Positions 50,610 to 64,000 are shown, numbered from the stretch's first letter. The stretch is DNA of 64,000 nt from a virus (IMGVR_UViG_3300036715_001290:64001-128000), one strand, 5' to 3'. Translations and numbers: made by a program. The notes: generated by a model not told the origin, from the sequence alone.

Positions 50610-50747
50610 CAATATGATCATCAACTCGTTTAAGATGACAATCATACCGATAAGTTAACTCTGTCGCTGTATGCACGAGTAAAAGATCTATTATATAAAC
50701 AATTAATACTATCCGTAAACAGTCTGGATGTCTAATATTTTTAATAT

Positions 50748-50821
50748 GCCTGCAAAGTACTGAAGGTAAGTACGCCGCCTCTGTAACGCGGAACGAGTCA
50801 GTTCGATCCTGACTGTGGGCT
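50748..50821 (+). tRNA. tRNA-Thr(UGU), C33 variant
   Basis: tcTGTaa loop, U73. Confidence 0.65.
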
Positions 50822-50831
50822 CAAAATAAAT

Positions 50832-50906
50832 GCTAATGTAACTCAATTGGATTAGAGTACCGCACTTGTAATGCGGAGGTTAAGAGTTCGATTCTCTTCA
50901 TTAGCT
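50832..50906 (+). tRNA. tRNA-Thr(UGU)
   Basis: CCGCA-ctTGTaa-TGCGG. Confidence 0.85.
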
Positions 50907-50925
50907 CAAACATAAAAAGGTTAAA

Positions 50926-51222
50926 ATGAAATCGTTTGATAGAATTGAATTAAGTACTTTAATTGAAAGACATCAATTTCTTTTTAAGGATAAAAAACAT
51001 CATGAATTTTCATTAGGTTTAGCAAAAGATATAATGGATATCTTTAAAGATAATATTTATATTATTGAAAATTGGTTAGAAAATACAAATTTAAAGTATC
51101 ATCCAGAATTGGATATTTTTAAAGATAAATTTGGATATTTAACAACATCTAAAGGTATTGATAATATTCTAAAACATTATTTTTTAGAAACTACTGGTTT
51201 AACTATTGATGAGATGAAATAA
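50926..51222 (+). CDS. Hypothetical protein
   Basis: AAGGT RBS, 98 aa. Confidence 0.55.
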   Translation: MKSFDRIELSTLIERHQFLFKDKKHHEFSLGLAKDIMDIFKDNIYIIENWLENTNLKYHPELDIFKDKFGYLTTSKGIDNILKHYFLETTGLTIDEMK

Positions 51223-51228
51223 AAATAT

Positions 51229-51301
51229 ATCCGTGGAGCTCGACTGGTTGAGCAATTGTCTGATACGCAATAGGTTGTGAGTTCAAATCTCATCGCGGAT
51301 A
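51229..51301 (+). tRNA. tRNA-Ile(GAU)
   Basis: ATTGT-ctGATac-GCAAT. Confidence 0.8.
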
Positions 51302-51307
51302 CTAAAT

Positions 51308-51383
51308 GCCCATATAACCCCCTTCCCTGATATGGAAGATAAAGGTAATGTTGAAAATAAAGGTTCAAGTCCTTTTATGGGTA
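51308..51383 (+). ncRNA. Rearranged tRNA-like RNA lacking a D arm
   Basis: GCCCATA/TATGGGT; CTTCC-ctGATat-GGAAG placed where the D arm should be; T arm intact. Confidence 0.5.
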
Positions 51384-51389
51384 CTATAT

Positions 51390-51463
51390 GCTGGGGTAGC
51401 ATAATCGGTAAATGCATACGGCTTATATCCGTGAGACAGTGTGTTCGAACCACACCTCCAGTA
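51390..51463 (+). tRNA. tRNA-Ile(UAU)
   Basis: TACGG-ctTATat-CCGTG. Confidence 0.75.
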
Positions 51464-51492
51464 CAAAAAATAGTTATAAAATAAAGATTCTT

Positions 51493-51702
51493 ATGGAATA
51501 CACTCAAGAAAAAATTGATGAAATTATCAAAAATATTAACGAAATGAGTCAATATCAAATGGCTTATATATGGAGATTTGCTCCAAGTGGTAATATATAT
51601 TTTGATAGTAAGTTACCATTTTTTGAAGTTTTTAATAAACGATTTAATGAACTTGGTGGAATGACACCTGAAATTAGTAAAAGCTTAGGATGGAATAAAT
51701 GA
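51493..51702 (+). CDS. Hypothetical protein
   Basis: ATG 51493 (track start lies within tRNA); GGMTPEISKSLGW. Confidence 0.6.
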   Translation: MEYTQEKIDEIIKNINEMSQYQMAYIWRFAPSGNIYFDSKLPFFEVFNKRFNELGGMTPEISKSLGWNK

Positions 51703-51932
51703 GTGTAACTGTAATTAAACCATGTCCATTTTGTAATAGTACAAACTTACATATGGATTATGAAGGTAATAATTCTAGTGGATTTGATGAAATTCGATGT
51801 AAAGATTGCGGAGCAATTGTAACATTTGGAAAAAAAGGTGACTGTTTCAGAGGTATAGATATTATGCAATGGAATACACGTCCAATTCCAGTTGCTATTG
51901 AATTTGATTTTAATGAAATAATTAAATACTAA
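51699..51932 (+). CDS. Lar-family zinc-finger protein
   Basis: KPCPFC...CKDCGA...WNTR. Confidence 0.65.
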   Translation: MSVTVIKPCPFCNSTNLHMDYEGNNSSGFDEIRCKDCGAIVTFGKKGDCFRGIDIMQWNTRPIPVAIEFDFNEIIKY

Positions 51933-51941
51933 GATATTATT

Positions 51942-52271
51942 ATGACAACAAAATATTTAGTAAGAATGTTGGATTATACCAATAAAGAAAATATTGAAGT
52001 ATATTTAACACCAACAAAAGAAATACGATTTGATGTAATTGCTGTAACTTTTTATAAAAATGGTGCATATGATGCAAGACCTGCTGATTATGATTATCAT
52101 AATGGTTGGTATGATTATGAACCACCAATTGAGTTAACTGTTGAACAACTTGATTTGGCATTAAAAATTGCAGAATCGGAATTGTTAAAAGAAATTAAGA
52201 TAGATGTAAAAAAGAATATTGTTGATGATTTAGTAAAACTAAAAATTGATGATTTAATTTTTTATAAATGA
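51942..52271 (+). CDS. Hypothetical protein
   Basis: 109-aa ORF. Confidence 0.5.
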   Translation: MTTKYLVRMLDYTNKENIEVYLTPTKEIRFDVIAVTFYKNGAYDARPADYDYHNGWYDYEPPIELTVEQLDLALKIAESELLKEIKIDVKKNIVDDLVKLKIDDLIFYK

Positions 52272-52280
52272 TATTAAAAA

Positions 52281-52380
52281 CTGATAGTATGGCGGAATAG
52301 TAGACGCACTGATAGTATACTATAATAATAAGTAGAACTCGGTTTATTTTTATATAGGTTCATATCCTATTACTATTAAG
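52281..52380 (+). ncRNA. Degenerate tRNA-like element
   Basis: TGGCGGAAT..TAGACGC D arm, ATAGGTTCATATCCTAT T arm, no anticodon loop. Confidence 0.4.
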
Positions 52381-52389
52381 ATTAATGAT

Positions 52390-52469
52390 GCAAGTATGGC
52401 GAAATGGTATACGCGGTCCCATATGAGGACTGTCTTACGGCATGTAGGTTCGAGTCCTACTACTTTGCA
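52390..52469 (+). tRNA. Leu-type tRNA body with aberrant loop CATATGA
   Basis: TGGCGAAATGGTATACGC D arm, long variable arm, canonical T arm. Confidence 0.55.
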
Positions 52470-52474
52470 CAAAT

Positions 52475-52548
52475 GTTTATATGTTGTATCGGTAGCAAAC
52501 GGGCCGTAACTGGAGCCGGAGATCATGGTTCAATTCCTGATATAAACA
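52475..52548 (+). ncRNA. Degenerate tRNA-like element
   Basis: GTTTATA/TATAAAC acceptor, GGTTCAATTCC. Confidence 0.4.
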
Positions 52549-52549
52549 C

Positions 52550-52687
52550 TAAGTCCTTATGAACTTCGTAGGCTAAATGTCGATAGTTGAAATCAGCCTT
52601 AAGTTGGAGTTAACAACCAACATGAGCATGTTCAAGTGCATGCTTCCTGAATATAGACAGGACAAATAAATGTCGACTAAGGACTTA
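52550..52687 (+). ncRNA. Orphan structured RNA
   Basis: Closing stem TAAGTCCTTA/TAAGGACTTA, four internal hairpins. Confidence 0.5.
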
Positions 52688-52697
52688 ATTTTAATAT

Positions 52698-52770
52698 GTG
52701 GGTATGGTGTAATGGGTAAACATACTGGGCGTTAGCCCGTGAGACGTAGGTTCGAGTCCTGCTATCCTCT
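52698..52770 (+). ncRNA. tRNA-like RNA with 4-nt anticodon loop
   Basis: GGGC-gtta-GCCC, canonical D and T arms. Confidence 0.5.
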
Positions 52771-52863
52771 GCTTTTTATAAATAACGAGGCGACAGTACG
52801 CGCCTACAATACTAGAAATAGTAAGAGATAAAAAGGTACAAAACATATTTTTTATTTTAATTT

Positions 52864-52972
52864 AATTATATAGCATAAATGGTAAATGCACACAGTCTTA
52901 GCATTGTGTAGAGTGGTTCGAGTCCACTATTGTTAGGGATGGCCTGTGTAGGTTCGAGTCCTACTATAATTA
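52864..52972 (+). ncRNA. tRNA-like RNA with two tandem T arms
   Basis: AGTGG-TTCGAGT-CCACT and GTAGG-TTCGAGT-CCTAC inside one acceptor stem. Confidence 0.55.
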
Positions 52973-52983
52973 AATTATGATAT

Positions 52984-53094
52984 GACTACAACAACTGATG
53001 GGTAATACTAATATTAATTGGATCATTTTTGCGAATTAATATAATATGTATTTCAATTCAAGAGTAAGCAAATGTGAGGGTTGATGTTGTAGTT
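52984..53094 (+). ncRNA. Orphan structured RNA
   Basis: Closing stem GACTACAACA/TGTTGTAGTT. Confidence 0.4.
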
Positions 53095-53098
53095 GCTT

Positions 53099-53262
53099 TT
53101 TATGAATGATGATGAGTAACGGAAGAGGGTAGACTCCAATTACATCAATTTAAGTAGATACGCCGATAAACGCTCGTGAGTACGTTACGCAAGTCGAGCA
53201 AAGCCTTAGTCGCACGGATGTAAACCAGCGGTGTTGAAATATACATCTGCATCATTCATAAA
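53099..53262 (+). ncRNA. Orphan structured RNA
   Basis: 13-bp closing stem TTTATGAATGATG/CATCATTCATAAA around a GC-enriched core. Confidence 0.5.
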
Positions 53263-53272
53263 TAATTAAAAT

Positions 53273-53349
53273 ACGCGGGTCGTCTAAATTGGCAGTAGGA
53301 CATTGAACGTTTAGTTCAAAGATCTAAGTTGGATCCTTAGTCTGACGTA
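53273..53349 (+). ncRNA. tRNA-like RNA with aberrant loop
   Basis: D arm GTCTAAATTGGCAGTAGGAC; TTGAAC-gttta-GTTCAA; altered T loop. Confidence 0.45.
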
Positions 53350-53369
53350 CATTTTAATTATTAACTAAA

Positions 53370-53398
53370 TTGACATTTGATTTATAAATGGTTATATT
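53370..53398 (+). promoter_or_regulatory. Sigma70-type promoter
   Basis: TTGACA-N17-TATATT(TG). Confidence 0.75.
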
Positions 53399-53424
53399 TG
53401 TATATAAAAATTAATGGACAATCA

Positions 53425-53847
53425 ATGCAAACATTTCTTCCATATAAATCATTTAACGAATCTGCACAATGTTTAGATTATCGTAGGTTAGGTAAACAAC
53501 GTATAGAAGCTAAACAGTTATTACAAATTTTATTAAGTGAAACTGATAAGAAAGGTTGGAGAAATCATCCAGCTTTATTAATGTGGAAAGGATATGAAAA
53601 TTCTTTAGCATATTATGGAATGATAATTTGTGAAGAATGGATTCGTAGAGGATATAAAGATAATCAATTAGATTATTTTAAAGAAAGATCTAATATTGAT
53701 AATGTAATATTACCACATTGGTTAGATGACAATTTTACTAAAAGTCATCGCTCAAATTTATTAAGAAAAGATAAAGAATTTTATTCTAAATATGGTTGGG
53801 ATGTTCCTGATGATTTGGAATACATTTGGCCTACAAAAATAAAATAA
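53425..53847 (+). CDS. Pyrimidine-dimer glycosylase (DenV)/MSMEG_6728-family protein
   Basis: MQTFLPY...LDYRRLGKQRIE...HPALLMW...SHRSNLLRKD. Confidence 0.75.
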   Translation: MQTFLPYKSFNESAQCLDYRRLGKQRIEAKQLLQILLSETDKKGWRNHPALLMWKGYENSLAYYGMIICEEWIRRGYKDNQLDYFKERSNIDNVILPHWLDDNFTKSHRSNLLRKDKEFYSKYGWDVPDDLEYIWPTKIK

Positions 53848-53854
53848 GGTTACT

Positions 53855-54232
53855 ATGAAAAAGTTTCTATATGTAAAGGCAGATACCAATGATACCAATG
53901 ATGCCGATTATGTTACTAGTTTGAATGAAATAGCAGATGAAGATATAAAACTAATGCAGCCTTTATTTGAGGCAATTAAAAGATTTGAACTATATGTTGG
54001 AAATATAAGAAATTATTCACCCGGGAATCCTTGGACCCATTCTAATAACTTTCCAACAAATGAATGTTGCAGAAAAGATTTAGGTGAAAAATATGCATCT
54101 GAATTATATGCCGATTATAAGGAAGCATTTGAATTGTTTGATGAAGATTATGTTCCCAGTTCTGAATATGGTATACATACTATTGAAGAAATAAAAGTTT
54201 TTGAAGTTGAAAATGTAAGAATATTAGTATAA
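53855..54232 (+). CDS. Hypothetical protein
   Basis: AAGGT RBS; DTNDADY motif. Confidence 0.55.
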   Translation: MKKFLYVKADTNDTNDADYVTSLNEIADEDIKLMQPLFEAIKRFELYVGNIRNYSPGNPWTHSNNFPTNECCRKDLGEKYASELYADYKEAFELFDEDYVPSSEYGIHTIEEIKVFEVENVRILV

Positions 54233-54261
54233 CCTAATTCTTCGTTATATTTATATTAAAT

Positions 54262-54346
54262 GCTGATATGGTTGTAATGGTAAACACGGAGGACTTAAAA
54301 TCCTCTGGACTTAATGTCCGTAGGGGTTCGAGTCCCCTTATCAGTA
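54262..54346 (+). tRNA. tRNA-Leu(UAA)
   Basis: GAGGA-ctTAAaa-TCCTC, long variable arm. Confidence 0.85.
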
Positions 54347-54352
54347 CAAAAT

Positions 54353-54436
54353 GGGCGGGTGGCGTAATTGGCAGCCGCATCAGACTTAAGATCTGATATC
54401 CGTAAGGGTGTGAGGGTTCGAGTCCCTCCTCGTCTA
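54353..54436 (+). tRNA. tRNA-Leu(UAA)
   Basis: TCAGA-ctTAAga-TCTGA, long variable arm. Confidence 0.85.
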
Positions 54437-54440
54437 CTAA

Positions 54441-54524
54441 TATTGTTAGGTGTTACGATAAATAGCATAACTGTTGGCTCATAACATGAGGTGATGGTAG
54501 GAACGGTTCGACTCCGTAGCAATA
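54441..54524 (+). ncRNA. tRNA-like RNA with elongated anticodon arm
   Basis: TATTGTT/AGCAATA, ACGG-TTCGACT-CCGT. Confidence 0.45.
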
Positions 54525-54545
54525 TGAAATTAATAAAGGTTATGT

Positions 54546-54944
54546 ATGAAAACATTAGAACAACTTAAAGAAGAGTATACTAAAAGATTAATAGTTCCTA
54601 TTGAAGGGTCTACTAATATTCAATTAGTTACTAAAAGTGGTTTTCCATTTTGTCCTGCTGGTTATAATAGAATTGTAATTGGTGAACGTGGACCTTATGT
54701 TGAGTTTGAAGATGTTTATATGCATAGTGTACATATTCCTGAAGACCAAGAATATAGAACAAATTGTACCTTTAGTAAAGTTTATTATATTGAACATCGT
54801 ACTATTGATGAATCAAATGTAAAAATATATGAGCAATTAAGAACTGTAAATTATGCAGATTATTTAATTGGTAAATTTTACGTATCACCATTTGATTTGA
54901 AAATTATGGATGGGCCCAATCTTATTGAGTCTATTAAAAAATAA
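54546..54944 (+). CDS. Hypothetical protein
   Basis: 132 aa; GYNRIVIGERGPYVEF. Confidence 0.6.
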   Translation: MKTLEQLKEEYTKRLIVPIEGSTNIQLVTKSGFPFCPAGYNRIVIGERGPYVEFEDVYMHSVHIPEDQEYRTNCTFSKVYYIEHRTIDESNVKIYEQLRTVNYADYLIGKFYVSPFDLKIMDGPNLIESIKK

Positions 54945-55044
54945 TGTTAGATTATAATAAACTTGATGTTGAATTTTCAAAAGAATTAAATAAATGGAGT
55001 TATATAAAATTAACTTTATGGATTTTGTTCGATAAATTAAGAAT

Positions 55045-55117
55045 GCTAATGTAGTTGTAATTGGTAAAACGAGTCCTTGGTAAGGATTAGTAAACGGATC
55101 GTAACCGTTCTTTAGCT
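55045..55117 (+). tRNA. tRNA-Thr(GGU)
   Basis: AGTCC-ttGGTaa-GGATT. Confidence 0.72.
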
Positions 55118-55132
55118 CAAAAAAATACATAT

Positions 55133-55206
55133 GCCGAGGTAAGTTAATTGGATAGACGATTAGAATGTGAATCTAATCAGTATGCGTTCGAACCGCGTCC
55201 TCGGTA
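55133..55206 (+). tRNA. tRNA-His(GUG) lacking encoded G-1:C73
   Basis: TTAGA-atGTGaa-TCTAA; A73. Confidence 0.7.
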
Positions 55207-55215
55207 CTAAAACAT

Positions 55216-55287
55216 TACTCTATCGTATAATGGTTATTACGCCGTCCTTTGAAGTCGGTTATTATAGTTCGAATCTATATAGAGTAG
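55216..55287 (+). tRNA. tRNA-Gln(UUG)
   Basis: U1-A72, G73, ctTTGaa loop. Confidence 0.78.
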
Positions 55288-55293
55288 CAAAAT

Positions 55294-55377
55294 GCATCTA
55301 TGGTGTAATAGGTAAACACGATAGTCTAAGAAGCTATTGGGAGCAATCCCGTAAGAGTTCGAGTCTCTTTAGGTGTA
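55294..55377 (+). tRNA. tRNA-Leu(AAG)
   Basis: ATAGT-ctAAGaa-GCTAT, long variable arm, A73. Confidence 0.8.
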
Positions 55378-55378
55378 C

Positions 55379-55590
55379 TAAATATTTATATGACATGTCG
55401 CTGATAATATTTATCAGAGGAACTTTGGGCATATAAAGGATATGTAGGAGATATAGAATCGTTTGTACTACAAGACGTGTATGAAACATCAAATGATGAG
55501 TTAGCAATCCTTTAACATATCATCAGGTAAGATGGATTAGAAAAATGACATGTTGAAATAACGGAACTCTAAGTATAGTATAAATATTTA
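55379..55590 (+). ncRNA. rnpB: Minimal RNase P RNA (~212 nt)
   Basis: P1 TAAATATTTATA/TATAAATATTTA; P2 CATGTCG/TGACATG; P3; GAGGAACTTTGGG; TGAAAC; AGCAA; P15 with GGTAA loop; ACGGAACTCTAAGT completing P4. Confidence 0.82.
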
Positions 55591-55597
55591 ATCTTAG

Positions 55598-55626
55598 TTG
55601 ACATTTGATATAATAATGGTTATATT
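55598..55626 (+). promoter_or_regulatory. Sigma70-type promoter
   Basis: TTGACA-N17-TATATT(TG). Confidence 0.75.
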
Positions 55627-55645
55627 TGAATATCAATTATTTAAT

Positions 55646-55718
55646 GCGGTAGTAATTCAATTGGTAGAATACCACATTGCCAATGTGGAGGTTGTCGGTT
55701 CGAGACCGGTTTACCGCA
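55646..55718 (+). tRNA. tRNA-Gly(GCC)
   Basis: CCACA-ttGCCaa-TGTGG. Confidence 0.85.
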
Positions 55719-55804
55719 CAACATTAAAGGAAAATATTATGAAGAAACTTTTAGTAAAAGGTATATTTTTTCAGTAAGGTAAAACTAACTAAGGAAAAAT
55801 ATAT

Positions 55805-56242
55805 ATGAAGAAAATCAATAAAAAAAATCCAGTAACTGTATGTATTGAATCAAATAATACATACCCAAGATTAATTACTGCAAAATTCATTTCATATTCA
55901 GATGTTGTATCATTCTTTGTAAAAAGAGGTTATACAAAAGCAAATATTGAAAGATGGATTAAAGATTATAAAAATTCTCATAAATTTTATGAGTATAATA
56001 AATATGATAAACAAAGTTTTAATGAACAAGCTAAAGTTGTAATTAAAGCTAATTCTCAATGGTATGGTTACAATAGCATATTTATAGAAGATCCAATTAA
56101 AATTGTTGATTCATTTGGTACTAAGATTAATTTTTATTCAACAGTACTAAATGATATAACTAAAAGATCATCTATTGAAAAGGATACTCAACCTTTTTAT
56201 GACATGTATCGTGTTAGAGTACGATATTGTAAGAATCGTTAA
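55805..56242 (+). CDS. Hypothetical protein
   Basis: AAGGA RBS, 145 aa. Confidence 0.55.
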   Translation: MKKINKKNPVTVCIESNNTYPRLITAKFISYSDVVSFFVKRGYTKANIERWIKDYKNSHKFYEYNKYDKQSFNEQAKVVIKANSQWYGYNSIFIEDPIKIVDSFGTKINFYSTVLNDITKRSSIEKDTQPFYDMYRVRVRYCKNR

Positions 56243-56262
56243 TATTTATATTATGGATATTT

Positions 56263-56348
56263 GGAAGATCCCATGTGGTGCGGTACTCGGTCCTGAAAAC
56301 CGTTAGGACGTTAATAGCGTTGTAAGAGTTCGAATCTCTTATCTTCCT
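56263..56348 (+). tRNA. tRNA-Ser(UGA), C33 variant
   Basis: GGAAGAT/ATCTTCC, ccTGAaa loop, long variable arm. Confidence 0.7.
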
Positions 56349-56355
56349 CTAAAAT

Positions 56356-56440
56356 GCTGGTGTGGTTGTAATGGTAAACACATACGCCTTAGAAGCGTAG
56401 GGGTGATCTGCCCGTGAGAGTTCGAGTCTCTCCATCAGTA
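56356..56440 (+). tRNA. tRNA-Leu(UAG)
   Basis: TACGC-ctTAGaa-GCGTA. Confidence 0.85.
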
Positions 56441-56448
56441 CAAAATAT

Positions 56449-56520
56449 GTGCGTTAAGCTGAAGTGGATAGGTATAGGTCTGCAAAACCTATGTAGTTGG
56501 TTCGAGTCCAACAATGCACT
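56449..56520 (+). tRNA. tRNA-Cys(GCA)
   Basis: TAGGT-ctGCAaa-ACCTA, U73. Confidence 0.78.
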
Positions 56521-56528
56521 CAAAATAT

Positions 56529-56601
56529 GCCCGTGTAGTTCAATGGCTCAGAATGTTAGGTCTACACCCTAATGATAACAGTTCGACTCTGTTCGCGGGT
56601 A
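56529..56601 (+). tRNA. tRNA-Val(UAC), C33 variant
   Basis: TTAGG-tcTACac-CCTAA. Confidence 0.7.
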
Positions 56602-56607
56602 CTACAT

Positions 56608-56680
56608 CCCAGTATCGTATAACGGCTTATTATATTGCGCTTCCAACGCAAGGACGTGGTTTCGATTACCACTACTGGGT
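56608..56680 (+). tRNA. tRNA-Gly(UCC)
   Basis: TTGCG-ctTCCaa-CGCAA, U73. Confidence 0.78.
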
Positions 56681-56715
56681 CAAATAAATAGTTATTAAAT
56701 AAAACAAACTAACCT

Positions 56716-57276
56716 ATGAATAAAAGATTAATAATATCAAGATATAATGAAAATTTAGATTGGCTTGATAGAATTAATTTTGATTATCTTGTTTATAATA
56801 AAGGTGAAAATATAAATCTACCATATATTAGATTGGAAAATATAGGTAGAGAAACTGATACATATTTAAGATTTATTATAGAACATTACAATAACTTACC
56901 AAATTATTTAATATTATGTCAAGGAAATCCATTTACACATCATAGAGATTTTGTAAATGTTGTTAATGAATTTAGTCATAATGATAATTCCGTTGTTTAT
57001 TTAAGTGAACATATTGTTAATGATGAACCATATAATCATAATCCTGAAAATGGTGATATAAGATGTGATAAATTATTAGACATACTTAACATTCCATATT
57101 CTAAAAATAATCTTTTATTTCCAGCAGGAGCTCAATTTATAATACCTAAAGATAAAATAACAAATAAAACTATTGAATTTTGGAAAGAATGTTTAAGAGT
57201 ATGTAATACATATTCTATAATGCCTTGGGTATTTGAAAGAGTATTTCCTATAATATTTGAGTATAATAATGTTTGA
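56716..57276 (+). CDS. DUF3431-like protein
   Basis: SRYNE...GRETDTYLRFIIEHYNNLP...GAQF...ER. Confidence 0.65.
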   Translation: MNKRLIISRYNENLDWLDRINFDYLVYNKGENINLPYIRLENIGRETDTYLRFIIEHYNNLPNYLILCQGNPFTHHRDFVNVVNEFSHNDNSVVYLSEHIVNDEPYNHNPENGDIRCDKLLDILNIPYSKNNLLFPAGAQFIIPKDKITNKTIEFWKECLRVCNTYSIMPWVFERVFPIIFEYNNV

Positions 57277-58378
57277 ATATGATTATCTTATTGTAGGTGC
57301 AGGACTTTATGGTTCTGTATGTGCAAGAGAATTAACAAATCTAGGATATAAATGTTTAGTTATTGATAAACGTGATCATATTGGTGGCAATTGTTATACT
57401 TATAAATCAGATGATATTTATGTACATAAATATGGTCCACATATATTTCATACTAATGATATTAGTATTTGGAATTATGTAAATAGATTCATATCATTTA
57501 ACAATTTTACTTTAAGAACAAAGGTTAACTATAAGGATAGAATTTATTCATTTCCAATTAATTTAATGTCAATATATCAAATATATGGAATTAATAATCC
57601 ATCAGATGCTATTGAAAAAATTAATGAAGTAAAAATACATAATGATCATCCTGATAATTTAGAAGAATATATTTTATCTCAAGTTGGTAAAGATCTCTAT
57701 GAAATTTATATTAAAGGTTATAGTACAAAACAATGGGGAAGATCCCCTAAGGATTTACCTGCAAGTATAGTTAAAAGATTACCAATACGTTATAATTTTG
57801 ATGATAGATATTTTGATGACAAATATCAAGGTATACCAATTAATGGTTATACGGAATTGTTTGAATGTTTACTTAATGATATCAGAGTAATATTAAATGT
57901 AGATTATGATATAGAACATAATCATTTTGATTTATTAGCAAGAAATATAATCTACACTGGACCTATTGATAGATATTATAATTATTGTTATGGTGAATTA
58001 GAATATAGAACATTAAGATTTGAAAATGAATATCATAATGTTAATGATTATCAAGGTACGGCATTAATTAACTATACTGATGTAAATGTTCCATATACTA
58101 GGATAATAGAACATAAACATTTTATGTTGAATAAATCTATTCATCAAGAAAATCATACTATTATTACTAAAGAATATCCTAAGATTTTTGAAAAGGAAGA
58201 TATTCCTTATTATCCAATACCTGATAGTAAAAATAATAAATTATATAATATGTATTTATTAAAATCAAAAGGAAATTCAAATTTATCATTTGGTGGTAGA
58301 ATAGGTGAATATAAATATTATGATATGCATCAGGTTATTGCTTCAGCATTGTCATTCGTAAAGGATATTAGAAAATGA
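57269..58378 (+). CDS. glf: UDP-galactopyranose mutase
   Basis: VGAGLYG, HIGGN, HKYGPHIFHT, KQWG, YTRIIEHKHF, GR..EYKYYDMHQ. Confidence 0.92.
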   Translation: MFEYDYLIVGAGLYGSVCARELTNLGYKCLVIDKRDHIGGNCYTYKSDDIYVHKYGPHIFHTNDISIWNYVNRFISFNNFTLRTKVNYKDRIYSFPINLMSIYQIYGINNPSDAIEKINEVKIHNDHPDNLEEYILSQVGKDLYEIYIKGYSTKQWGRSPKDLPASIVKRLPIRYNFDDRYFDDKYQGIPINGYTELFECLLNDIRVILNVDYDIEHNHFDLLARNIIYTGPIDRYYNYCYGELEYRTLRFENEYHNVNDYQGTALINYTDVNVPYTRIIEHKHFMLNKSIHQENHTIITKEYPKIFEKEDIPYYPIPDSKNNKLYNMYLLKSKGNSNLSFGGRIGEYKYYDMHQVIASALSFVKDIRK

Positions 58379-58608
58379 ATATATTAGTTATAGGTGTTTT
58401 AAGTATACTAATTTATTTTATGATTAGAACAATATTTTGGATATTAATGGCAGTAATGATATCTTATAATTCTAAGGGTAGTAAAACTACAATTCAATTT
58501 TTATGGTATGATTTTTGGCGCGGTGCTTTCTTTGATAAAAATAACAAAATAATTTACATATGTCCAATTTCAACATGGGTCTTTAAAATAGAAATGGAAC
58601 CAAAATGA
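58375..58608 (+). CDS. Small membrane protein
   Basis: Hydrophobic N-terminus, WYDFW. Confidence 0.5.
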   Translation: MNILVIGVLSILIYFMIRTIFWILMAVMISYNSKGSKTTIQFLWYDFWRGAFFDKNNKIIYICPISTWVFKIEMEPK

Positions 58609-58745
58609 TAGATGGAATAGGTGATGCATTTGGTAATTTTATAGGTGGATTGGTTACTTTATGTATTATATTTGTACCATTAGGTATATGGAAATTTGTT
58701 GAAATAATTATATGGCTTTTTACTCATGTTAAAATTAGTTGGTAA
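58605..58745 (+). CDS. Small membrane protein (missed by track)
   Basis: 46 aa, VPLGIWKFVEIIIWL, ATGA overlap. Confidence 0.55.
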   Translation: MIDGIGDAFGNFIGGLVTLCIIFVPLGIWKFVEIIIWLFTHVKISW

Positions 58746-58748
58746 AAA

Positions 58749-58991
58749 ATGAAAAATCCAATAAGACCTGAAAAAGTAATACTAACATTTATAGTTAGGG
58801 ATATCTCTCCTTTATTATTTTTGAACGATCTTCCAGTAAAAAGAACAATTCAATTAGAATTAACCGAAGAACAATTAAAAAAATTAAATCTAAGATGGGT
58901 TGGTTTTGATGGTGGTAAAGATGTTTATGAATCACTTGCCGAAGTATTTATGGAAAATATTGAAATGAAATTTACCGAGGTAAATAAATGA
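58749..58991 (+). CDS. Hypothetical protein
   Basis: 80-aa ORF in operon. Confidence 0.5.
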   Translation: MKNPIRPEKVILTFIVRDISPLLFLNDLPVKRTIQLELTEEQLKKLNLRWVGFDGGKDVYESLAEVFMENIEMKFTEVNK

Positions 58992-59323
58992 AAGATGACA
59001 CTGTTGAATATCCACAAAATATACTTAAAGAAGAAAAAGCAATAGTGAATCAAATCTTTAAAGATGATACTGTTATTTATAATGAGTATGATCCAATAGT
59101 TTTAAGCGACAGCACGGCAATTCAAATAAAAATATTTACTAATAAATATAGAGTTGGTGATATAGAATTAATTGAAAATGATAGTGCCGATGAACTTAGA
59201 TTTAATCGTTGGGATTTAGCCGCTATTAGATTAATAGACCAACTTGATGGTAATTATAATAGATTATTTTTAACCGCTTTGAAACGAGAGATTCAAAAAA
59301 GATTGGATGATATGAATGGTTGA
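58988..59323 (+). CDS. Hypothetical protein
   Basis: 111-aa ORF in operon. Confidence 0.5.
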   Translation: MKDDTVEYPQNILKEEKAIVNQIFKDDTVIYNEYDPIVLSDSTAIQIKIFTNKYRVGDIELIENDSADELRFNRWDLAAIRLIDQLDGNYNRLFLTALKREIQKRLDDMNG

Positions 59324-59618
59324 ATTAATTAATAAACATACTAATGAACATATAGTTTTACCAACACCCGATAATAAAATATGTAAGATACTTATTAAAG
59401 ATAATACGGCTACACCTATTGATTGGAGTAGTGTAGAATTACCTAAAGTAAATTATACTAATAAATTAATATCCGATAATTTGGTATCATTACGACCCAT
59501 GACATATTATAAAGGTAAAGCTTTCCACTTGAATTATAAATATGGATTCTGGGGTAGGTTAAGATGGTTACTTAATAAAATTAAAATTATTTTTACAAAA
59601 AAGATTAACAAAAAGTAG
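59316..59618 (+). CDS. Hypothetical protein
   Basis: 100-aa ORF in operon. Confidence 0.5.
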   Translation: MVELINKHTNEHIVLPTPDNKICKILIKDNTATPIDWSSVELPKVNYTNKLISDNLVSLRPMTYYKGKAFHLNYKYGFWGRLRWLLNKIKIIFTKKINKK

Positions 59619-59649
59619 TATAAAACAAATACTTGATATATTTATAAAC

Positions 59650-59724
59650 ATGAAAACAAATAAATTCAATCCCAGTAATAAACGCAACTTTAGCAATCCA
59701 AGATGGAATCCTGCTGTGACGTAA
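59650..59724 (+). CDS. Putative attenuator leader peptide MKTNKFNPSNKRNFSNPRWNPAVT
   Basis: 24-codon ORF directly after ATATTTAT motif; 3' end complementary to downstream terminator. Confidence 0.6.
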   Translation: MKTNKFNPSNKRNFSNPRWNPAVT

Positions 59725-59749
59725 CTATGTACTTTCAATTTATTTGAAG

Positions 59750-59790
59750 AAGCTGCTAAATACGTCATGGAATTATTTAGCAGCTTTTTT
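59750..59790 (+). terminator. Intrinsic terminator (attenuator)
   Basis: 13-bp stem AAGCTGCTAAATA/TATTTAGCAGCTT followed by T run. Confidence 0.8.
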
Positions 59791-59926
59791 AGTTTTTGTT
59801 TTATGTTCTTTATAAATGCATCAATAATTGGTCTATGGTTTATATCAGTCTAATAGGTTAAACACTTGCTAGCATCATCTAAAGCATCAATTTTATGCAA
59901 ATAACACTTATTTTGGGTTATTTATT

Positions 59927-59962
59927 AACTCTATTGACATTTTGATTAAAATTGGTTATATT
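59927..59962 (+). promoter_or_regulatory. Early sigma70-type promoter
   Basis: AACTCTA-TTGACA-N17-TATATT. Confidence 0.8.
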
Positions 59963-60016
59963 TATATTATAAAATTTAACAATCAATTGGATTAAAAATA
60001 GATAAAATTATTTATT

Positions 60017-60052
60017 AACTCTATTGACATTTGAATAAAAAATAGTTAAATT
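60017..60052 (+). promoter_or_regulatory. Early sigma70-type promoter
   Basis: AACTCTA-TTGACA-N17-TAAATT(TG). Confidence 0.8.
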
Positions 60053-60077
60053 TGTATTATAAATTTTAATTGAGAAT

Positions 60078-60248
60078 ATGAAAAATAAAGAAGAATTAAT
60101 TGAATTGGCAAACACACCTGTTAAAAAATTAACAGAAGATGAAGCTAAAAAATTGTTAGTTTATTTATATGATAAATTAAATGATTTAGGAGATGATGAT
60201 TTTTTTGGTACTGAAGGTTGGAAACATTTTTTTGGATTAGAAAAATAA
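60078..60248 (+). CDS. Small hypothetical protein (missed by track)
   Basis: 56 aa, DDDFFGTEGW. Confidence 0.55.
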   Translation: MKNKEELIELANTPVKKLTEDEAKKLLVYLYDKLNDLGDDDFFGTEGWKHFFGLEK

Positions 60249-60255
60249 ATTTTAT

Positions 60256-60291
60256 AACTCTATTGACAATTAAATAAAAAATGGTTAAATT
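60256..60291 (+). promoter_or_regulatory. Early sigma70-type promoter
   Basis: AACTCTA-TTGACA-N17-TAAATT(TG). Confidence 0.8.
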
Positions 60292-60334
60292 TGTATTATA
60301 AATAATTGATAATGAAAACAAAATATTAAAATTT

Positions 60335-60431
60335 TACAAATATAAAAACGGCAGTCGGTAGGAAAGTCCATATTTAGTATGGTACGTACCGTGAGTGATA
60401 TGAGGATAGAAGGCGAGCCTCAATATTTGTA
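60335..60431 (+). ncRNA. Orphan structured RNA
   Basis: Closing stem TACAAATAT/ATATTTGTA around GC-enriched core, first element after promoter. Confidence 0.4.
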
Positions 60432-60436
60432 TATAT

Positions 60437-60509
60437 GCATCCACATGAACCAAGGCTGGCGATCTGGTCTCCAAAACCGGATGGAAGAGTTCGATTCTCT
60501 TTGGGTGTG
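60437..60509 (+). tRNA. tRNA-Trp(CCA)
   Basis: CTGGT-ctCCAaa-ACCGG, G73. Confidence 0.75.
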
Positions 60510-60526
60510 CTAATGATTAGATATAT

Positions 60527-60654
60527 GATTCTATAACTTTTTGAAAGATTGGAGGTTGGTCAAATATTTTAATTCATAATAAATCCGACAGGTTGATTCC
60601 CTGTAGTTGTCTGCTCATAATCAGACTGACCGACTCAAGAAAGGTTATAGGATT
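60527..60654 (+). ncRNA. Long-stem RNA carrying T-arm-like and anticodon-like hairpins
   Basis: ATTCTATAACTTT/AAGGTTATAGGAT; GGTTGGTCA/TGACCGACT; ACAGG-TTGATTC-CCTGT; GTCTG-ctcataat-CAGAC. Confidence 0.5.
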
Positions 60655-60710
60655 AAGAATTAATAGATATATTTGAAAAGAATTTAAGTAGCTAAAATTA
60701 TTTTTTATAT

Positions 60711-60785
60711 CGGTATGTGGGCCAATGGCTAGGCCACTCCGTTTGGGGCGGAGGCATCGTGTAGGTTCGAGTCCTATCATACCGA
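60711..60785 (+). tRNA. tRNA-Pro(UGG)
   Basis: CTCCG-ttTGGgg-CGGAG, C1-G72, A73. Confidence 0.85.
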
Positions 60786-60790
60786 CAACA

Positions 60791-60905
60791 TCACTGGTCA
60801 GATACATCTGAATAAAACGTGTAGGGACTATAAGCTATAAGTATGCATTGATGCTTATAAGAACAGCCTTGCTTTAGAGTTAAATGAAATATGTTAACCC
60901 AGTGG
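60791..60905 (+). ncRNA. Orphan structured RNA
   Basis: Closing stem CACTGG/CCAGTG with internal hairpins. Confidence 0.35.
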
Positions 60906-60916
60906 CCGTTTAATAT

Positions 60917-60987
60917 AACTCGGTAGCTTAATGTAAAGCTGCAGGTCGTCAAGAGCTGCGTTGTGAGGTCAAAACTTTCCCGGGTTG
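60917..60987 (+). ncRNA. tRNA-like RNA, GTCAAAA T-loop type
   Basis: AACTCGG/CCGGGTT; paralog of 61000 element. Confidence 0.5.
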
Positions 60988-60999
60988 CTAAATTTATAT

Positions 61000-61065
61000 G
61001 CCGCGGTAGCTCAATGTAGAGCGCCAGTCGACTGGTGGTTGTGAGGTCAAAACTCACCTGCGGCG
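61000..61065 (+). ncRNA. tRNA-like RNA with 4-nt anticodon loop, GTCAAAA T-loop type
   Basis: GCCGCGG/CTGCGGC; GCCAG-tcga-CTGGT; GTGAG-GTCAAAA-CTCAC. Confidence 0.55.
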
Positions 61066-61179
61066 CAAATTTTAATTGTATTAGTGGTAGAAGAATGCAA
61101 ACTCAGCGCTTCTAACGTTGATGTCGACTTAAGAGTAAAGTTTCATGTACATTGATAATACAATTAATTATTTTTACAT

Positions 61180-61254
61180 TCATTGGTAGCTCAATGGTAG
61201 AGCGCCGCGCTGTTAACGCGGATGTTGGGGGTTCGAGTCCCTCCCTCTGAGCCA
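61180..61254 (+). tRNA. tRNA-Asn(GUU)
   Basis: CCGCG-ctGTTaa-CGCGG, G73, CCA; two acceptor mismatches. Confidence 0.8.
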
Positions 61255-61257
61255 TAT

Positions 61258-61333
61258 TCCTGATTAGCAATCGTGGTGAATTGCGACAAGCTGTTAACTT
61301 GTATAGAGACTGGTTCGACTCCAGTATTAGGAG
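61258..61333 (+). tRNA. tRNA-Asn(GUU)
   Basis: ACAAG-ctGTTaa-CTTGT, G73. Confidence 0.8.
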
Positions 61334-61337
61334 CAAA

Positions 61338-61459
61338 GTAAATATAAAGTGGGATCTTTTGAAGATTCATTATGATACTTAACAGGTTCGAATCCTGTCT
61401 ATGAGGTTATGCCTCAGAGAGTGGCAAGCGGTGGAGAAATCGATGCTATTTATTTATAT
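61338..61459 (+). ncRNA. Circularly permuted tRNA-like RNA (YrlA-like order)
   Basis: T arm first, then loop-closed acceptor-like stem, then TGGCAAGCGGT D-loop sequence. Confidence 0.5.
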
Positions 61460-61497
61460 ATGTATATAATCCGGTTTTGTATACATATAGATATTAT

Positions 61498-61570
61498 CTG
61501 CGTATGGGCCAATTGGCAGGCTACCTGATTTGGATTCAGGGGTGTGGGGGTTCAAGTCCCTCTATGCAGA
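61498..61570 (+). tRNA. tRNA-Pro(UGG)
   Basis: CCTGA-ttTGGat-TCAGG, C1-G72. Confidence 0.8.
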
Positions 61571-61794
61571 CTAAGTTTCTATTCGGAGCAATGACAATAG
61601 TTTAACCCTATTGAGATTAAGTAGAAATCGTTCATTGTGAAGATATATTGATGTTAAGTACTCTGTTGCCGTATAATGAAATTTGCAAAAATCGTTATAC
61701 AATAAAGAAAGTATACCGTTGAGGAGAACATATTAGTATACGCTTAACAAATTTATGTTAATAAACTACAAATTAACTAGAAATATTTTTTTAT

Positions 61795-61869
61795 GGGTTC
61801 GTAGCAAAAATGGACAAATGCAGCTGGCTTTTAACCAGTAAAGTCCGAGTTCGACTCTCGGCGGGCCCA
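61795..61869 (+). tRNA. tRNA-Lys(UUU)
   Basis: GCTGG-ctTTTaa-CCAGT. Confidence 0.82.
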
Positions 61870-62024
61870 CTGCGGTTTTTTGGTGTAGATAAAAGGCATA
61901 CCAACGCTTATGTTGGAGGCAAAATCGCTTTGTTTTGATAATTAATATGTAGCTCTGAAACTTCGGGAAATCCTGCGCGTAGGACATTGTCTTGAGTACC
62001 GAGTATTAGTTATTGTTTTTATAT

Positions 62025-62097
62025 TGGCATGTACGAATCATGGTGAAACGGAGTGGCTGTTACCCACTTGAGGAAAGTTCGATCCTTTCCATGCCAG
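62025..62097 (+). tRNA. tRNA-Asn(GUU), divergent D arm
   Basis: AGTGG-ctGTTac-CCACT, G73. Confidence 0.68.
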
Positions 62098-62106
62098 CTT
62101 TGAAAT

Positions 62107-62175
62107 TTGTATGTAGTTTAACGGCAGAATACGGGCGGGAAGCCTGAGACCTGAGTTCGAATCTCAGCATACTAA
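62107..62175 (+). ncRNA. tRNA-like RNA with 5-nt anticodon loop GGGAA
   Basis: CGGGC-gggaa-GCCTG; canonical T arm. Confidence 0.5.
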
Positions 62176-62179
62176 TACT

Positions 62180-62408
62180 AGACCGAAGAATGTATTATAC
62201 CTTCAGAAAGTATAAATGCATTAAAGATTACTTTTCCTAACAGGCCTGAATAACCTGAGATGGTATGGATTATAAAGTTATGCCGGACATTGCAGCGTCG
62301 GTAAATAATATAATTCATCCGGAGGTTACCGTACAAAGGTGAGTAATTTAATTAAATAAAGACCCTGAATCTTTATTTCAGTAGTAAGTTGCAACTTACC
62401 TTCGGTTT
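62180..62408 (+). ncRNA. Orphan multibranched RNA (~230 nt)
   Basis: Closing stem AGACCGAAG/CTTCGGTTT; at least five internal helices. Confidence 0.5.
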
Positions 62409-62420
62409 ATGATTTTTAAT

Positions 62421-62506
62421 GGAAGATTGCTAGAGTGGTAATAGGCCAGTTTGCTAAACTGTGACGGCGGTGAAACGCTGCATCCGTTCAAATCGGATAT
62501 CTTCCT
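62421..62506 (+). tRNA. tRNA-Ser(GCU)
   Basis: CAGT-ttGCTaa-ACTG, long variable arm. Confidence 0.82.
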
Positions 62507-62531
62507 CAACTAATAATTTTATAAAAGACTA

Positions 62532-62795
62532 ATGAATACTATAAAATGTCAGATATGTAAATCGGATTATAGATTACTTTTTGATGATAGCATACAAGGT
62601 GACGATTGTGCATGCTTCTTTAATAAAGATATGATATATGGAGCTTTTGGTACATCACTATATGATTTTATGGAATTTAAAGTATTAGATTATAAGATAT
62701 TGAATAATTTAATAATCAATGCTCCTATATGTGATAATTGTATGACTTCATTATTAGAAAATAAACAAATTAAATGTACATATAAATTATACTGA
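62532..62795 (+). CDS. Cys-rich hypothetical protein
   Basis: CQIC...CDNC. Confidence 0.55.
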   Translation: MNTIKCQICKSDYRLLFDDSIQGDDCACFFNKDMIYGAFGTSLYDFMEFKVLDYKILNNLIINAPICDNCMTSLLENKQIKCTYKLY

Positions 62796-62806
62796 TAGGA
62801 TATTAT

Positions 62807-63040
62807 ATGTCAATGAGTGATTGCCCTGAATGTTGGGATAATATTTGTACATGTGGTCATAAATATCAACATATGGATGTTGATGAATTAAAAGATCTAA
62901 TAAAAGTATTACAAAAAATTGTTAAAAATAAAACAAAAAAGATTCCTTGGAATCCATTATTAACTCAAGATATAAATGAAATTATTTCAAAAAATAAAAA
63001 AATTACTTGGGTATACTTTAAGGATAAAAACAAATGGTAA
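62807..63040 (+). CDS. Hypothetical protein
   Basis: MSDCPECWDNICTCG, AGGA RBS. Confidence 0.55.
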   Translation: MSMSDCPECWDNICTCGHKYQHMDVDELKDLIKVLQKIVKNKTKKIPWNPLLTQDINEIISKNKKITWVYFKDKNKW

Positions 63041-63216
63041 ATCTTTCAGATTATGAATGGAATTATGAATGTCCAATTTGTAATTCAAAATTCAGGCCAT
63101 GTAAATGTGGTATGATGAAACCTGAAAAGGTTGATGAAGAAATACAAAAGTTTGCAGATGAATTAAAGAAACTTATAATAGATTCAAAATTTGAATGTTA
63201 TCATAAATTAAAATGA
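63034..63216 (+). CDS. Small zinc-finger-like protein
   Basis: CPIC...CKC. Confidence 0.45.
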   Translation: MVNLSDYEWNYECPICNSKFRPCKCGMMKPEKVDEEIQKFADELKKLIIDSKFECYHKLK

Positions 63217-63221
63217 AATTT

Positions 63222-63294
63222 GGGAAGTGAACTAGTGTGGTCATAGTGGTCGCCTGAAGAGCGAAGAAAATCAGTTCGATTCTGGTACTTCCCA
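63222..63294 (+). tRNA. tRNA-Phe(GAA)
   Basis: TCGC-ctGAAga-GCGA. Confidence 0.75.
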
Positions 63295-63299
63295 CAAAC

Positions 63300-63372
63300 G
63301 CATCGGTAGCTCAATGGTTAGAGTGCCGCACTCCTAAGGCGGGAGATATGAGTTCGACTCTCATTCGGTGTT
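63300..63372 (+). tRNA. tRNA-Arg(CCU)
   Basis: ctCCTaa loop, canonical D/T arms. Confidence 0.8.
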
Positions 63373-63379
63373 CAAATAT

Positions 63380-63453
63380 GGGCCCATAGCAAAATGGTCA
63401 AATGCAGCTCCCTCTTAAGGAGTATGGTGATGGTTCGACTCCATCTGGGCTCA
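63380..63453 (+). tRNA. tRNA-Lys(CUU)
   Basis: GCTCC-ctCTTaa-GGAGT. Confidence 0.82.
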
Positions 63454-63470
63454 CAAATAAAAGGTTATTT

Positions 63471-63680
63471 ATGGAAAATGCAGAATTGGTTTACATTCCA
63501 CAAAAAGTTTGGAATATAAAAAACAATAAAGTTTATGAAATTATAAATGAATTTGTTATTAATGCTACAAATTGTAGTACTAATCAAATTATGGTTTTAT
63601 ATAAAGATTCTGATAATAATCTTTTTGTTCGTGAAGTAAATGAATTTAAAGAAAAATTTGTATGGATGTTAACAAAATAA
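63471..63680 (+). CDS. DUF1653-like protein
   Basis: MVLYKD...FVREVNEFKEKF; ATG 63471 after AAGGT. Confidence 0.55.
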   Translation: MENAELVYIPQKVWNIKNNKVYEIINEFVINATNCSTNQIMVLYKDSDNNLFVREVNEFKEKFVWMLTK

Positions 63681-63880
63681 AAATTAAGTCATTAAAGAAA
63701 AGAATTGAAACAGGTCCTGTACAATTTAACGATGATTGGCCTGGGATTTTTATTAGAGGTGATGAATGTTTTGCATATTACTTAGCATTACGTGAAGTAC
63801 TTAAAGCTGACATTGATATGATTACAAAATCTGAAGTTGTATGTTTAATGAATTTATTAGATAGTTCAAGAGTAAGATAA
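63662..63880 (+). CDS. Hypothetical protein
   Basis: RIETGPVQFNDDWPGIFIRGD. Confidence 0.55.
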   Translation: MDVNKIKIKSLKKRIETGPVQFNDDWPGIFIRGDECFAYYLALREVLKADIDMITKSEVVCLMNLLDSSRVR

Positions 63881-64000
63881 TGGAAAATGGTTTATATATT
63901 GACCAAGATGAAGCAATGCTTCTTTTAGAACTTATAAGTTGTATGTATAGTCCAAGTTATGGTTTTGTTTATGATCCTGAATTTCCAGATGATGGTGATG
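63880..64000 (+). CDS. Hypothetical protein, 3'-truncated
   Basis: TAATG overlap, open to window end. Confidence 0.4.
   Translation, partial: MENGLYIDQDEAMLLLELISCMYSPSYGFVYDPEFPDDGD

Follow-up and report, generated by a model that had tools for sequence, protein, structure and literature searches.

A 24-codon reading frame that closes just ahead of an intrinsic terminator, and stands before the second tRNA block in the genome of an uncultured phage, is rather probably the leader of a ribosome-mediated attenuator which would gate readthrough into that tRNA unit. The initial annotation of this DNA had proposed attenuation of a tRNA operon at this site, and the interpretation gains support from other phages, in which the composition of comparable leaders covaries with the tRNA genes downstream of them. 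The window, by which we mean the whole stretch of 64,000 nt that was analysed, spans positions 64001-128000 of an IMG/VR phage contig that is 140,489 bp long and has a G+C content of 27%.

The leader and the tRNA genes that follow it

The leader unit sits where two + strand transcription units meet. The first tRNA block (45582-56681) lies 5' of a tightly packed operon of protein genes (56716-59618), and after the last stop codon of that operon come, all on the + strand, a promoter-like element (59616-59646), the leader ORF with its ATG start (59650-59724) and the intrinsic terminator (59745-59791, with arms at 59745-59762 and 59774-59791 and an 11-nt loop). The initial annotation was right that a ATATTTATA motif (59638-59646), a 24-codon ORF and a terminator follow one another here, and right too in placing three sigma-70 promoters between them and the tRNA genes. 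These form an early promoter region (59927-60291, + strand) with copies of AACTCTATTGACA at 59927, 60017 and 60256; the genome has eight copies of this promoter, all eight on the + strand. The gap from the terminator to the first tRNA gene is 645 nt and holds these three consensus-like promoters together with a 56-codon ORF (60078-60248, + strand) between the second and third of them. The second tRNA block, which the leader is taken to serve, lies downstream on the same strand as the leader, from 60437 to 64000 and onwards past the window.

The leader ORF opens with Met-Lys-Thr and closes with Ala-Val-Thr and a stop codon. As had been claimed, residues 4-21 are exclusively Asn, Lys, Phe, Pro, Ser (AGY codons), Arg or Trp, with a tally of 6 Asn, 3 Pro, 2 Lys, 2 Phe, 2 Ser-AGY, 2 Arg and 1 Trp, so that 18 consecutive codons (59659-59712, + strand) can all be decoded by the downstream tRNAs. 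This set of residues accounts for 0.333 of six-frame residues in the contig, and no other run of it in the six frames of the 140,489 bp is as long as these 18 residues, the runner-up being 12. In 2.2 Mb of other phage loci there was one non-repetitive run of 17 residues and one run of 18 made of a repeated four-residue unit, and no more. Over the ORF, the downstream tRNAs can decode 19 of 23 codons, where the background fraction is 0.33 (binomial tail 1.7e-6), and the match is frame-specific: an overlapping ORF in another frame at the same site has 2 of its 13 codons matched. The short ORF ending close 5' of an intrinsic terminator and the enrichment in cognate codons are both features of an attenuator, and both are found here. 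The last four matched codons (AGA, TGG, AAT, CCT) lie very near the candidate antiterminator, and a ribosome stalled on them would mask it, so these four are too close to signal.

Two other origins of the run were considered and rejected. Tandem Repeats Finder (TRF) returned nothing, though Asn does come back at every third codon, and local base composition does not suffice, as the base frequencies of the run itself, counted by hand, give this residue set at only ~0.34-0.38 per codon.

Within the window the second block contains genes for Trp, Pro (two), Asn (three), Lys(UUU), Lys(CUU), Ser(GCU), Phe and Arg(CCU), of which tRNA-Trp at 60437 is found only with a relaxed threshold. Extra tRNA-like elements are present at 60917, 61000 and 62107, and Arg and Leu genes lie past the window. 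There (L003:1273-1608) the block goes on with Arg(GCG), Leu(CAA), Arg(UCG) and Arg(UCU) and then ends in a terminator. The caveat that the CGC and AGA codons of the leader would go unread therefore falls, as both are served, by Arg(GCG) and Arg(UCU) respectively. The statement that no cognate tRNA has a canonical copy upstream is wrong for Asn: ARAGORN at default settings calls tRNA-Asn(GTT) at 46393-46465, and further upstream elements include a non-canonical Asn-like one at 52698 and a Pro-like one at 49253. Leu(CAA) is the sole downstream species without a codon in the leader. Overall, then, the parts described for this site are all there, and what had been said of upstream Asn and of the Arg codons has to be withdrawn.

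Several other features of these tRNA regions were observed. L003:1273-1650 corresponds to 64273-64650 in the numbering of the window, 3' of its end, and the Arg(TCG) and Arg(TCT) genes found in it are unusual Arg-like genes of 80 nt whose anticodon loops are misread by ARAGORN. The elements at 60917-60987, 61000-61065, 62107-62175, 49253 and 52698 are tRNA-shaped with good acceptor and T arms and abnormal anticodon arms; that at 61000 has a 4-nt loop and those at 49253 and 52698 are without U33. All are missed by ARAGORN defaults and some score 24-48 bits in Rfam. After the terminator of the second block comes an HNH/RNA-ligase ORF (PF09414, L003:1630-2685), and beyond it a tmRNA (L003:4721-5080).

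Between the third early promoter and tRNA-Trp is a stretch of ~100 nt (60340-60436) that is richer in G+C and holds GGAAAGTCC, a sequence reminiscent of CR-I, a conserved motif in RNase P RNA. A comparison of 59400-60436 with Rfam at E up to 1, T-box families and the RNase P RNA-like stretch included, gave zero matches. Ahead of the first block, ~200 nt 5' of tRNA-Gln (45582), a small ORF (45288-45377) has a Gln-rich end, with 5 Gln in 28 codons (tail 0.003); it is probably due to chance, as it overlaps with an 88-codon ORF in a different frame and is without a terminator.

Terminator, alternative pairing and promoter

The terminator is strong, with an energy of -20.8 to -21.6 kcal/mol, a T-run at 59785-59790 that further T residues follow, and its stem begins 20 nt past the stop codon of the leader. 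The fold z-score of the unit is about -3 (-3.05) and comes mostly from the terminator. The two complementarities on which the attenuation reading was first built hold up: TGACGTA (59717-59723) is complementary to TACGTCA (59761-59767), and CTGCTG (59711-59716) pairs with TAGCAG (59778-59783) with one G-U pair. When the 3' arm of the terminator is left out of the fold, 59714-59723 pairs with 59761-59770, the apex of the 5' arm and the loop, in 10 bp of which 2 are G-U, and 59726-59738 pairs with 59744-59758; in the same cut fold, enclosed by the 10-bp helix, 59722-59737 takes up 13 nt of the 18-nt 5' arm. The candidate 5' strand of an antiterminator is therefore placed at 59714-59738 (+ strand), made up of the last three codons, the stop codon and the next 14 nt. 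Within the leader ORF there is furthermore a 7-nt copy of part of the terminator 3' arm, TTTAGCA (59689-59695, + strand), which could form a helix of -3.1 kcal/mol on its own with TGCTAAA (59754-59760) in the 5' arm and is a second, weaker antiterminator candidate. A fold of the ~140-nt RNA also contains a 13-nt long-range helix between 59657-59669 and 59734-59746.

How far such pairing exceeds expectation was assessed against the genome itself. The complementarity of the whole leader to the terminator amounts to -19.6 kcal/mol, set against -14.6 +/- 3.8 in random genomic 94-mers, which falls short of significance (p = 0.10); for segments from the end of the ORF the corresponding values are p = 0.005-0.05. 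Chance is thus exceeded by a modest margin only, and structure alone is insufficient for accepting the attenuation reading. Folding with parts of the leader blocked, which had been suggested as a way of seeing the switch, went against it: the terminator keeps a pairing probability of ~0.99 with a 30-nt ribosome footprint at any position, and equilibrium folding gives no switch. As the terminator wins at equilibrium in all states, any switch must be kinetic, as it is in the trp attenuator. In attenuators of the trp and his type (trpL, hisL) a kinetic antiterminator competes with a more stable terminator and the position of the ribosome sets the outcome (see the modelling study PMC1183508). In the window, a ribosome at the stop codon would on this modelling cover the whole 5' strand of the antiterminator, and one held at codons 4-17 would leave that strand free.

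The promoter in front of the leader consists of a TAGTATAA box (59616-59623), a 14-nt spacer and ATATTTATA (59638-59646), and embedded in it is a -10-like TATATT (59637-59642) with the ATG 7 nt beyond the hexamer. The exact combination TAGTATAA-N14-ATATTTATA occurs at three sites in the window (44341, 54225, 59616), and with up to 2 mismatches at 8 sites where 0.55 are expected. By itself ATATTTATA occurs 40 times on the + strand and 9 times on the - strand, and it lies 6-10 nt before tRNA-Leu 54262, tRNA-Arg 64272 and the tmRNA; both this position and the strand bias suggest that it marks transcription starts. From its motifs, the leader has a promoter of its own, of a class distinct from the TTGACA-type early promoters. 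Given that the TATATT hexamer is only 7 nt before the ATG, the leader mRNA is predicted to have little or no untranslated 5' sequence, its 5' end falling on the ATG or a few bases from it. No Shine-Dalgarno sequence was found for the leader ORF, whilst about half of the genes of this phage have one; a leaderless start would explain its absence, and translation would then have to be leaderless.

This second class of promoters, with TAGTATAA plus ATATTTATA at 44341, 54225, 59616, 26074 and other sites, stands apart from the eight AACTCTATTGACA promoters and may be the middle or late promoter of the phage. A scan of IMG/VR with the promoter pattern returned 118 unrelated single matches. One of the three exact sites heads a twin unit (44341-44518) that lies before the first tRNA block, in which the same TAGTATAA-N14-ATATTTATA promoter is followed by a transcript of ~105 nt and a clean terminator (44487-44518), and then by three early promoters, at 44530, 44729 and 45123. 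Over its first 20 bases the transcript resembles that of the leader, with TTG where the leader has ATG. The twin was considered as a second leader and rejected, as it holds only an 8-codon ORF (44439-44465), all of whose codons are served by block 1, and nothing in it is complementary to the terminator (p = 0.77). It may represent an attenuator in decay or else a gene for a small RNA.

Leaders of the same design in other phages

Relatives of this particular leader were sought by sequence and were not found. A blastn comparison of 58900-60400 with 50,697 phage records gave zero matches; scans of IMG/VR with the neighbouring proteins of 100, 111 and 56 aa and with an exact 21-mer of the terminator gave nothing; and the 100-aa protein has no homologue except itself among 5.8 billion proteins. 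Relatives of the UDP-galactopyranose mutase have only 58-60% identity and no synteny. In the five listed places that carry the 100-aa neighbour the leader region is identical, one contig having a single mismatch elsewhere, and there is consequently no variation from which to judge the conservation of this copy. Samples that contain the phage are JGI 3300037010 and 3300035182 and the runs SRR11723144, SRR11723145 and SRR11727985. The suggestion that homologous leaders be looked for in related phages, and their composition compared with the downstream tRNA set, thus yielded nothing at the level of sequence and a positive answer at the level of design, to which we now turn.

The loci used for this had been fetched as neighbours of RNA ligase and UDP-galactopyranose mutase and not for leaders. 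A scan for small ORFs 5' of tRNA clusters gave strong matches in two of them, L036 and L017. Two further searches were blind to composition, one for ORFs of 12-45 codons with a Met-Lys-Thr start and a terminator, the other for any ATG ORF ending no more than 78 nt from a strong terminator that itself lies no more than 900 nt from a tRNA gene. Together these composition-blind searches recover the window leader and six units in five uncultured phages: one each in L028 (2878-2982), L004 (8111-8197), L061 (5540-5623) and L017 (3081-3167) and two in L036 (7572-7622 and 11197-11256). A further match, of four Lys codons before a tRNA-Lys in L006, was discarded as an artefact of frame, produced by a gene whose product has acidic residues at its end, and the regions around RNA ligase in three cultured phages contained no tRNA genes.

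Each leader fits its own downstream tRNAs and none fits the tRNAs upstream of it. In L028 residues 4-23 comprise only nine amino acids, those whose tRNAs come next, and in L017 there is a run of 15 residues of Gln, Asn, Tyr and Trp only, with genes for Tyr, Trp, Asn (two) and Gln (two) downstream. The two leaders of L036 are found in one phage and each fits its own block, the first preceding Trp, Arg, Asn, Phe and Ile, the second Lys, Tyr, Asp, Ser, Glu, Ile, Asn and His. In a permutation test the 7 leaders were set against the 7 tRNA sets of six phages (the window phage and the five uncultured ones) in all 5040 permutations. The true pairing gave the highest mean enrichment, 2.25, better than all the other 5039 permutations, a diagonal that is somewhat inflated because it was the match itself that first led to three of the seven leaders, although the composition-blind searches recover all of them. 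Mismatched pairings had a mean enrichment of 1.26 and a maximum of 1.68. The window leader was enriched 2.38-fold for its own tRNA set and 0.96-1.79-fold for the others. Leader composition and downstream tRNA set do covary across phages, as the initial annotation had asked to see.

The resemblance extends to the layout of the units. In the window leader and the other members of the class a matched run comes first and is followed by an unmatched C-terminal tail that pairs with the 5' arm of the terminator; indeed, when the 3' arm is left out, the 5' arm pairs with the 3' part of the ORF in six of the six units folded. In L061 there is an exact complement of 9 nt between the last ORF codons and the terminator 5' arm, and both L036 leaders have a shorter match; each of the latter comes after a TTGACA-type promoter and has an end of Gly codons which pairs with a C-rich terminator arm. 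The Met-Lys-Thr start is common to the window leader and those of L017, L028, L061 and L004. The first tRNA gene lies 6-70 nt past the terminator in L017, L028, L061 and L036, as against 645 nt in the window. In L017, L028 and L061 the tRNA genes come directly after the terminator with no promoter between; L004 has one sigma-70-type promoter between terminator and tRNAs, and the arrangement seen in the window is therefore not unique to it.

The composition-blind search, applied to the tRNA clusters of two cultured phages, brought up a unit of this kind in each. In the Ralstonia phage RsoM2USA an ORF on the minus strand (MG752970.1, 87361-87248) has 32 of 36 codons matched (tail 1.2e-8) and forms with its terminator a unit at 87361-87197 (minus strand), before a tRNA cluster. 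In the Caulobacter phage CcrBL9 (NC_048047.1) the ORF at 88798-88896 has 16 of 31 codons matched (tail 4.5e-4), and ORF and terminator together (88798-88954) again stand before a tRNA cluster, with a gap of ~175 nt from the terminator to the tRNA genes, tRNA-Val among them. The CcrBL9 ORF carries an exact 10-nt copy of the terminator 3' arm and is preceded by a TTGACA/TATAAG promoter that ends 7 nt 5' of the ATG, a geometry of -10 element, 7 nt and ATG that CcrBL9 shares with L017 and the window. Neither of the two leader ORFs is annotated in the public records.

Judged from these comparisons of sequence, the window leader belongs, by design and not by alignable sequence, to a recurrent class of leaders that stand before phage tRNA blocks. 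It differs from the other members in having no sequence homology to them past the first three codons, in having three early promoters and an ORF after the terminator, where L004 has one promoter, and in an antiterminator that engages the loop and apex of the terminator as opposed to an exact copy of the 3' arm.

Proposed mechanism, alternatives and known attenuators

The mechanism we propose would begin at the non-early promoter, whose TAGTATAA box and TATATT would start an mRNA on the ATG or no more than 1-3 nt away from it. A ribosome would then translate the 24-codon leader, in which codons 4-21 sample Asn, Lys, Phe, Pro, Ser-AGY, Arg and Trp. With fast decoding it would reach the stop codon and cover 59714-59738, the terminator (59745-59791) would form and a transcript of ~140 nt would be released. 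With slow decoding of any matched codon the ribosome would lag, 59714-59738 would pair with the 5' arm and loop of the terminator, the terminator could not close and RNA polymerase would continue into the tRNA genes. It is typical of this family, though not strictly defining, that the regulated genes are reached only via the attenuator; here three promoters intervene. They would provide an unconditional supply of tRNA at the start of infection, to which the attenuator would add a feedback-controlled supply that would be most relevant after the early promoters are shut off. Such a dual supply is the most likely working model. Points against this particular copy are the upstream Asn tRNA, the downstream Leu(CAA) that has no codon in the leader, and the twin unit, which is without a convincing leader or antiterminator.

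Other accounts of the unit need to be weighed against attenuation. One would keep a translated, codon-matched ORF and give it another readout, such as the stability or processing of the RNA, a peptide or ~140-nt RNA acting in trans, or the blocking of run-in from the upstream operon (56716-59618). The three downstream early promoters, which make control in cis partly redundant, the thermodynamic dominance of the terminator in every state and the resemblance of the unit to a small gene, complete with promoter and terminator, would all suit this, as would the twin unit, where promoter and terminator occur without a matched leader. We nevertheless think it unlikely, given that in L017, L028 and L061 the tRNA genes abut the terminator and readthrough is the only evident route to them, and that the end of the ORF pairs with the terminator 5' arm in every one of the six folded units. 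It would seem distinctly improbable that the site is merely the ordinary terminator of the upstream operon with a chance ORF in its 3' untranslated region, the codon match being a coincidence thrown up by a very large screen. Very many windows were indeed screened, ORFs of at least 20 codons are common in this DNA of 27% GC (90 in 7 kb), this one has no Shine-Dalgarno sequence, and the antiterminator is of marginal significance; yet the genome has no second run of 18 such residues and 2.2 Mb of other phage DNA has next to none, the match is frame-specific, and the design recurs, with covarying composition, in seven other phages where it was found without using composition.

A non-coding small RNA of ~140 nt, running from the promoter (59616-59646) to 59791 with an incidental reading frame, is very improbable. 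The predicted start at or inside the ATG would agree with it, as would the good folding of the RNA (z = -3.05, the 13-nt helix included) and the parallel promoter-to-terminator unit of about equal length at 44341-44518. Against this, no Rfam family matches, the fold score is mostly that of the terminator, and a frame-specific match of 18 codons to the neighbouring tRNAs would be left without a reason.

Attenuation by a translated leader thus remains the preferred reading, and it has both parallels and differences among known systems. In the enterobacterial multivalent attenuators the thr leader senses Thr and Ile and the ilvGMEDA leader senses Ile, Leu and Val. The unit in the window is like them in having a short ORF whose codons correspond to what the operon provides, a terminator just after it, an alternative helix that involves the end of the ORF, and several amino acids sensed by one leader. 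It is unlike them in that the targets are tRNA genes and not biosynthetic enzymes, so that the signal would be tRNA supply, and in that a clear 1:2 'protector' hairpin is missing, the mRNA is probably leaderless and strong promoters precede the target. The trpL and hisL leaders use consecutive codons of one amino acid, and without translation they terminate (superattenuation); the default predicted for the window leader without a ribosome is, by contrast, the antiterminator. In the pheST operon the pheM leader places an aminoacyl-tRNA synthetase under attenuation, which is likewise leader-peptide control of a gene of the translation apparatus, whereas its target is protein-coding, its amino acid a single one and its setting bacterial, where here there are phage tRNA genes. 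T-box riboswitches, too, are attenuators that read the state of a specific tRNA, although they bind the uncharged tRNA directly and need no ORF; both they and the window leader tie transcription attenuation to tRNA, and 59400-60436 has no match to a T-box covariance model at E up to 1.

In a full-text literature search no description was found of leader-peptide attenuation of tRNA genes, whether in phages or in cells, nor any paper in which one leader samples seven amino acids, a number that to our knowledge exceeds that of any known leader. The island in which the leader unit lies also holds the RNA ligase, the tmRNA and the odd tRNA-like elements. Natural triggers could be a mismatch of codon usage with the host, host shut-off or a tRNA-cleaving defence, and we find the last of these attractive because of the adjacent RNA ligase, tmRNA and tRNA-like elements. 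A broader idea, which is possible though we hold it only tentatively, is that large phages run a general surveillance of tRNA supply: each block would be switched on by ribosomes stalling in its own codon-matched leader, which would sense, one codon at a time, shortage of host tRNAs or attack by an anticodon nuclease and be answered with replacement tRNAs, and in this phage would do so from a dedicated non-early promoter and a leaderless mRNA, after the early promoters are shut off.

If the attenuator reading is true, it would explain the sorting of tRNA genes into blocks by amino acid in large phages, and phages would be able to sense directly how fast codons are decoded, which would matter where host tRNAs are depleted or where a defence cleaves tRNAs. 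It would also follow that small regulatory ORFs of an entire class escape gene callers and are missing from public records, as with the unannotated leaders of RsoM2USA and CcrBL9, two cultured phages that are tractable systems for tests of the mechanism; the host of CcrBL9, Caulobacter vibrioides CB15, is a strain in standard laboratory use. Finally, a unit in L037 (12158-12282) has an 18-codon ORF with a Met-Lys-Thr start and a strong GC-rich terminator followed by a protein gene and not by tRNAs; it may be the same leader design gating genes other than those for tRNA, or it may be chance.
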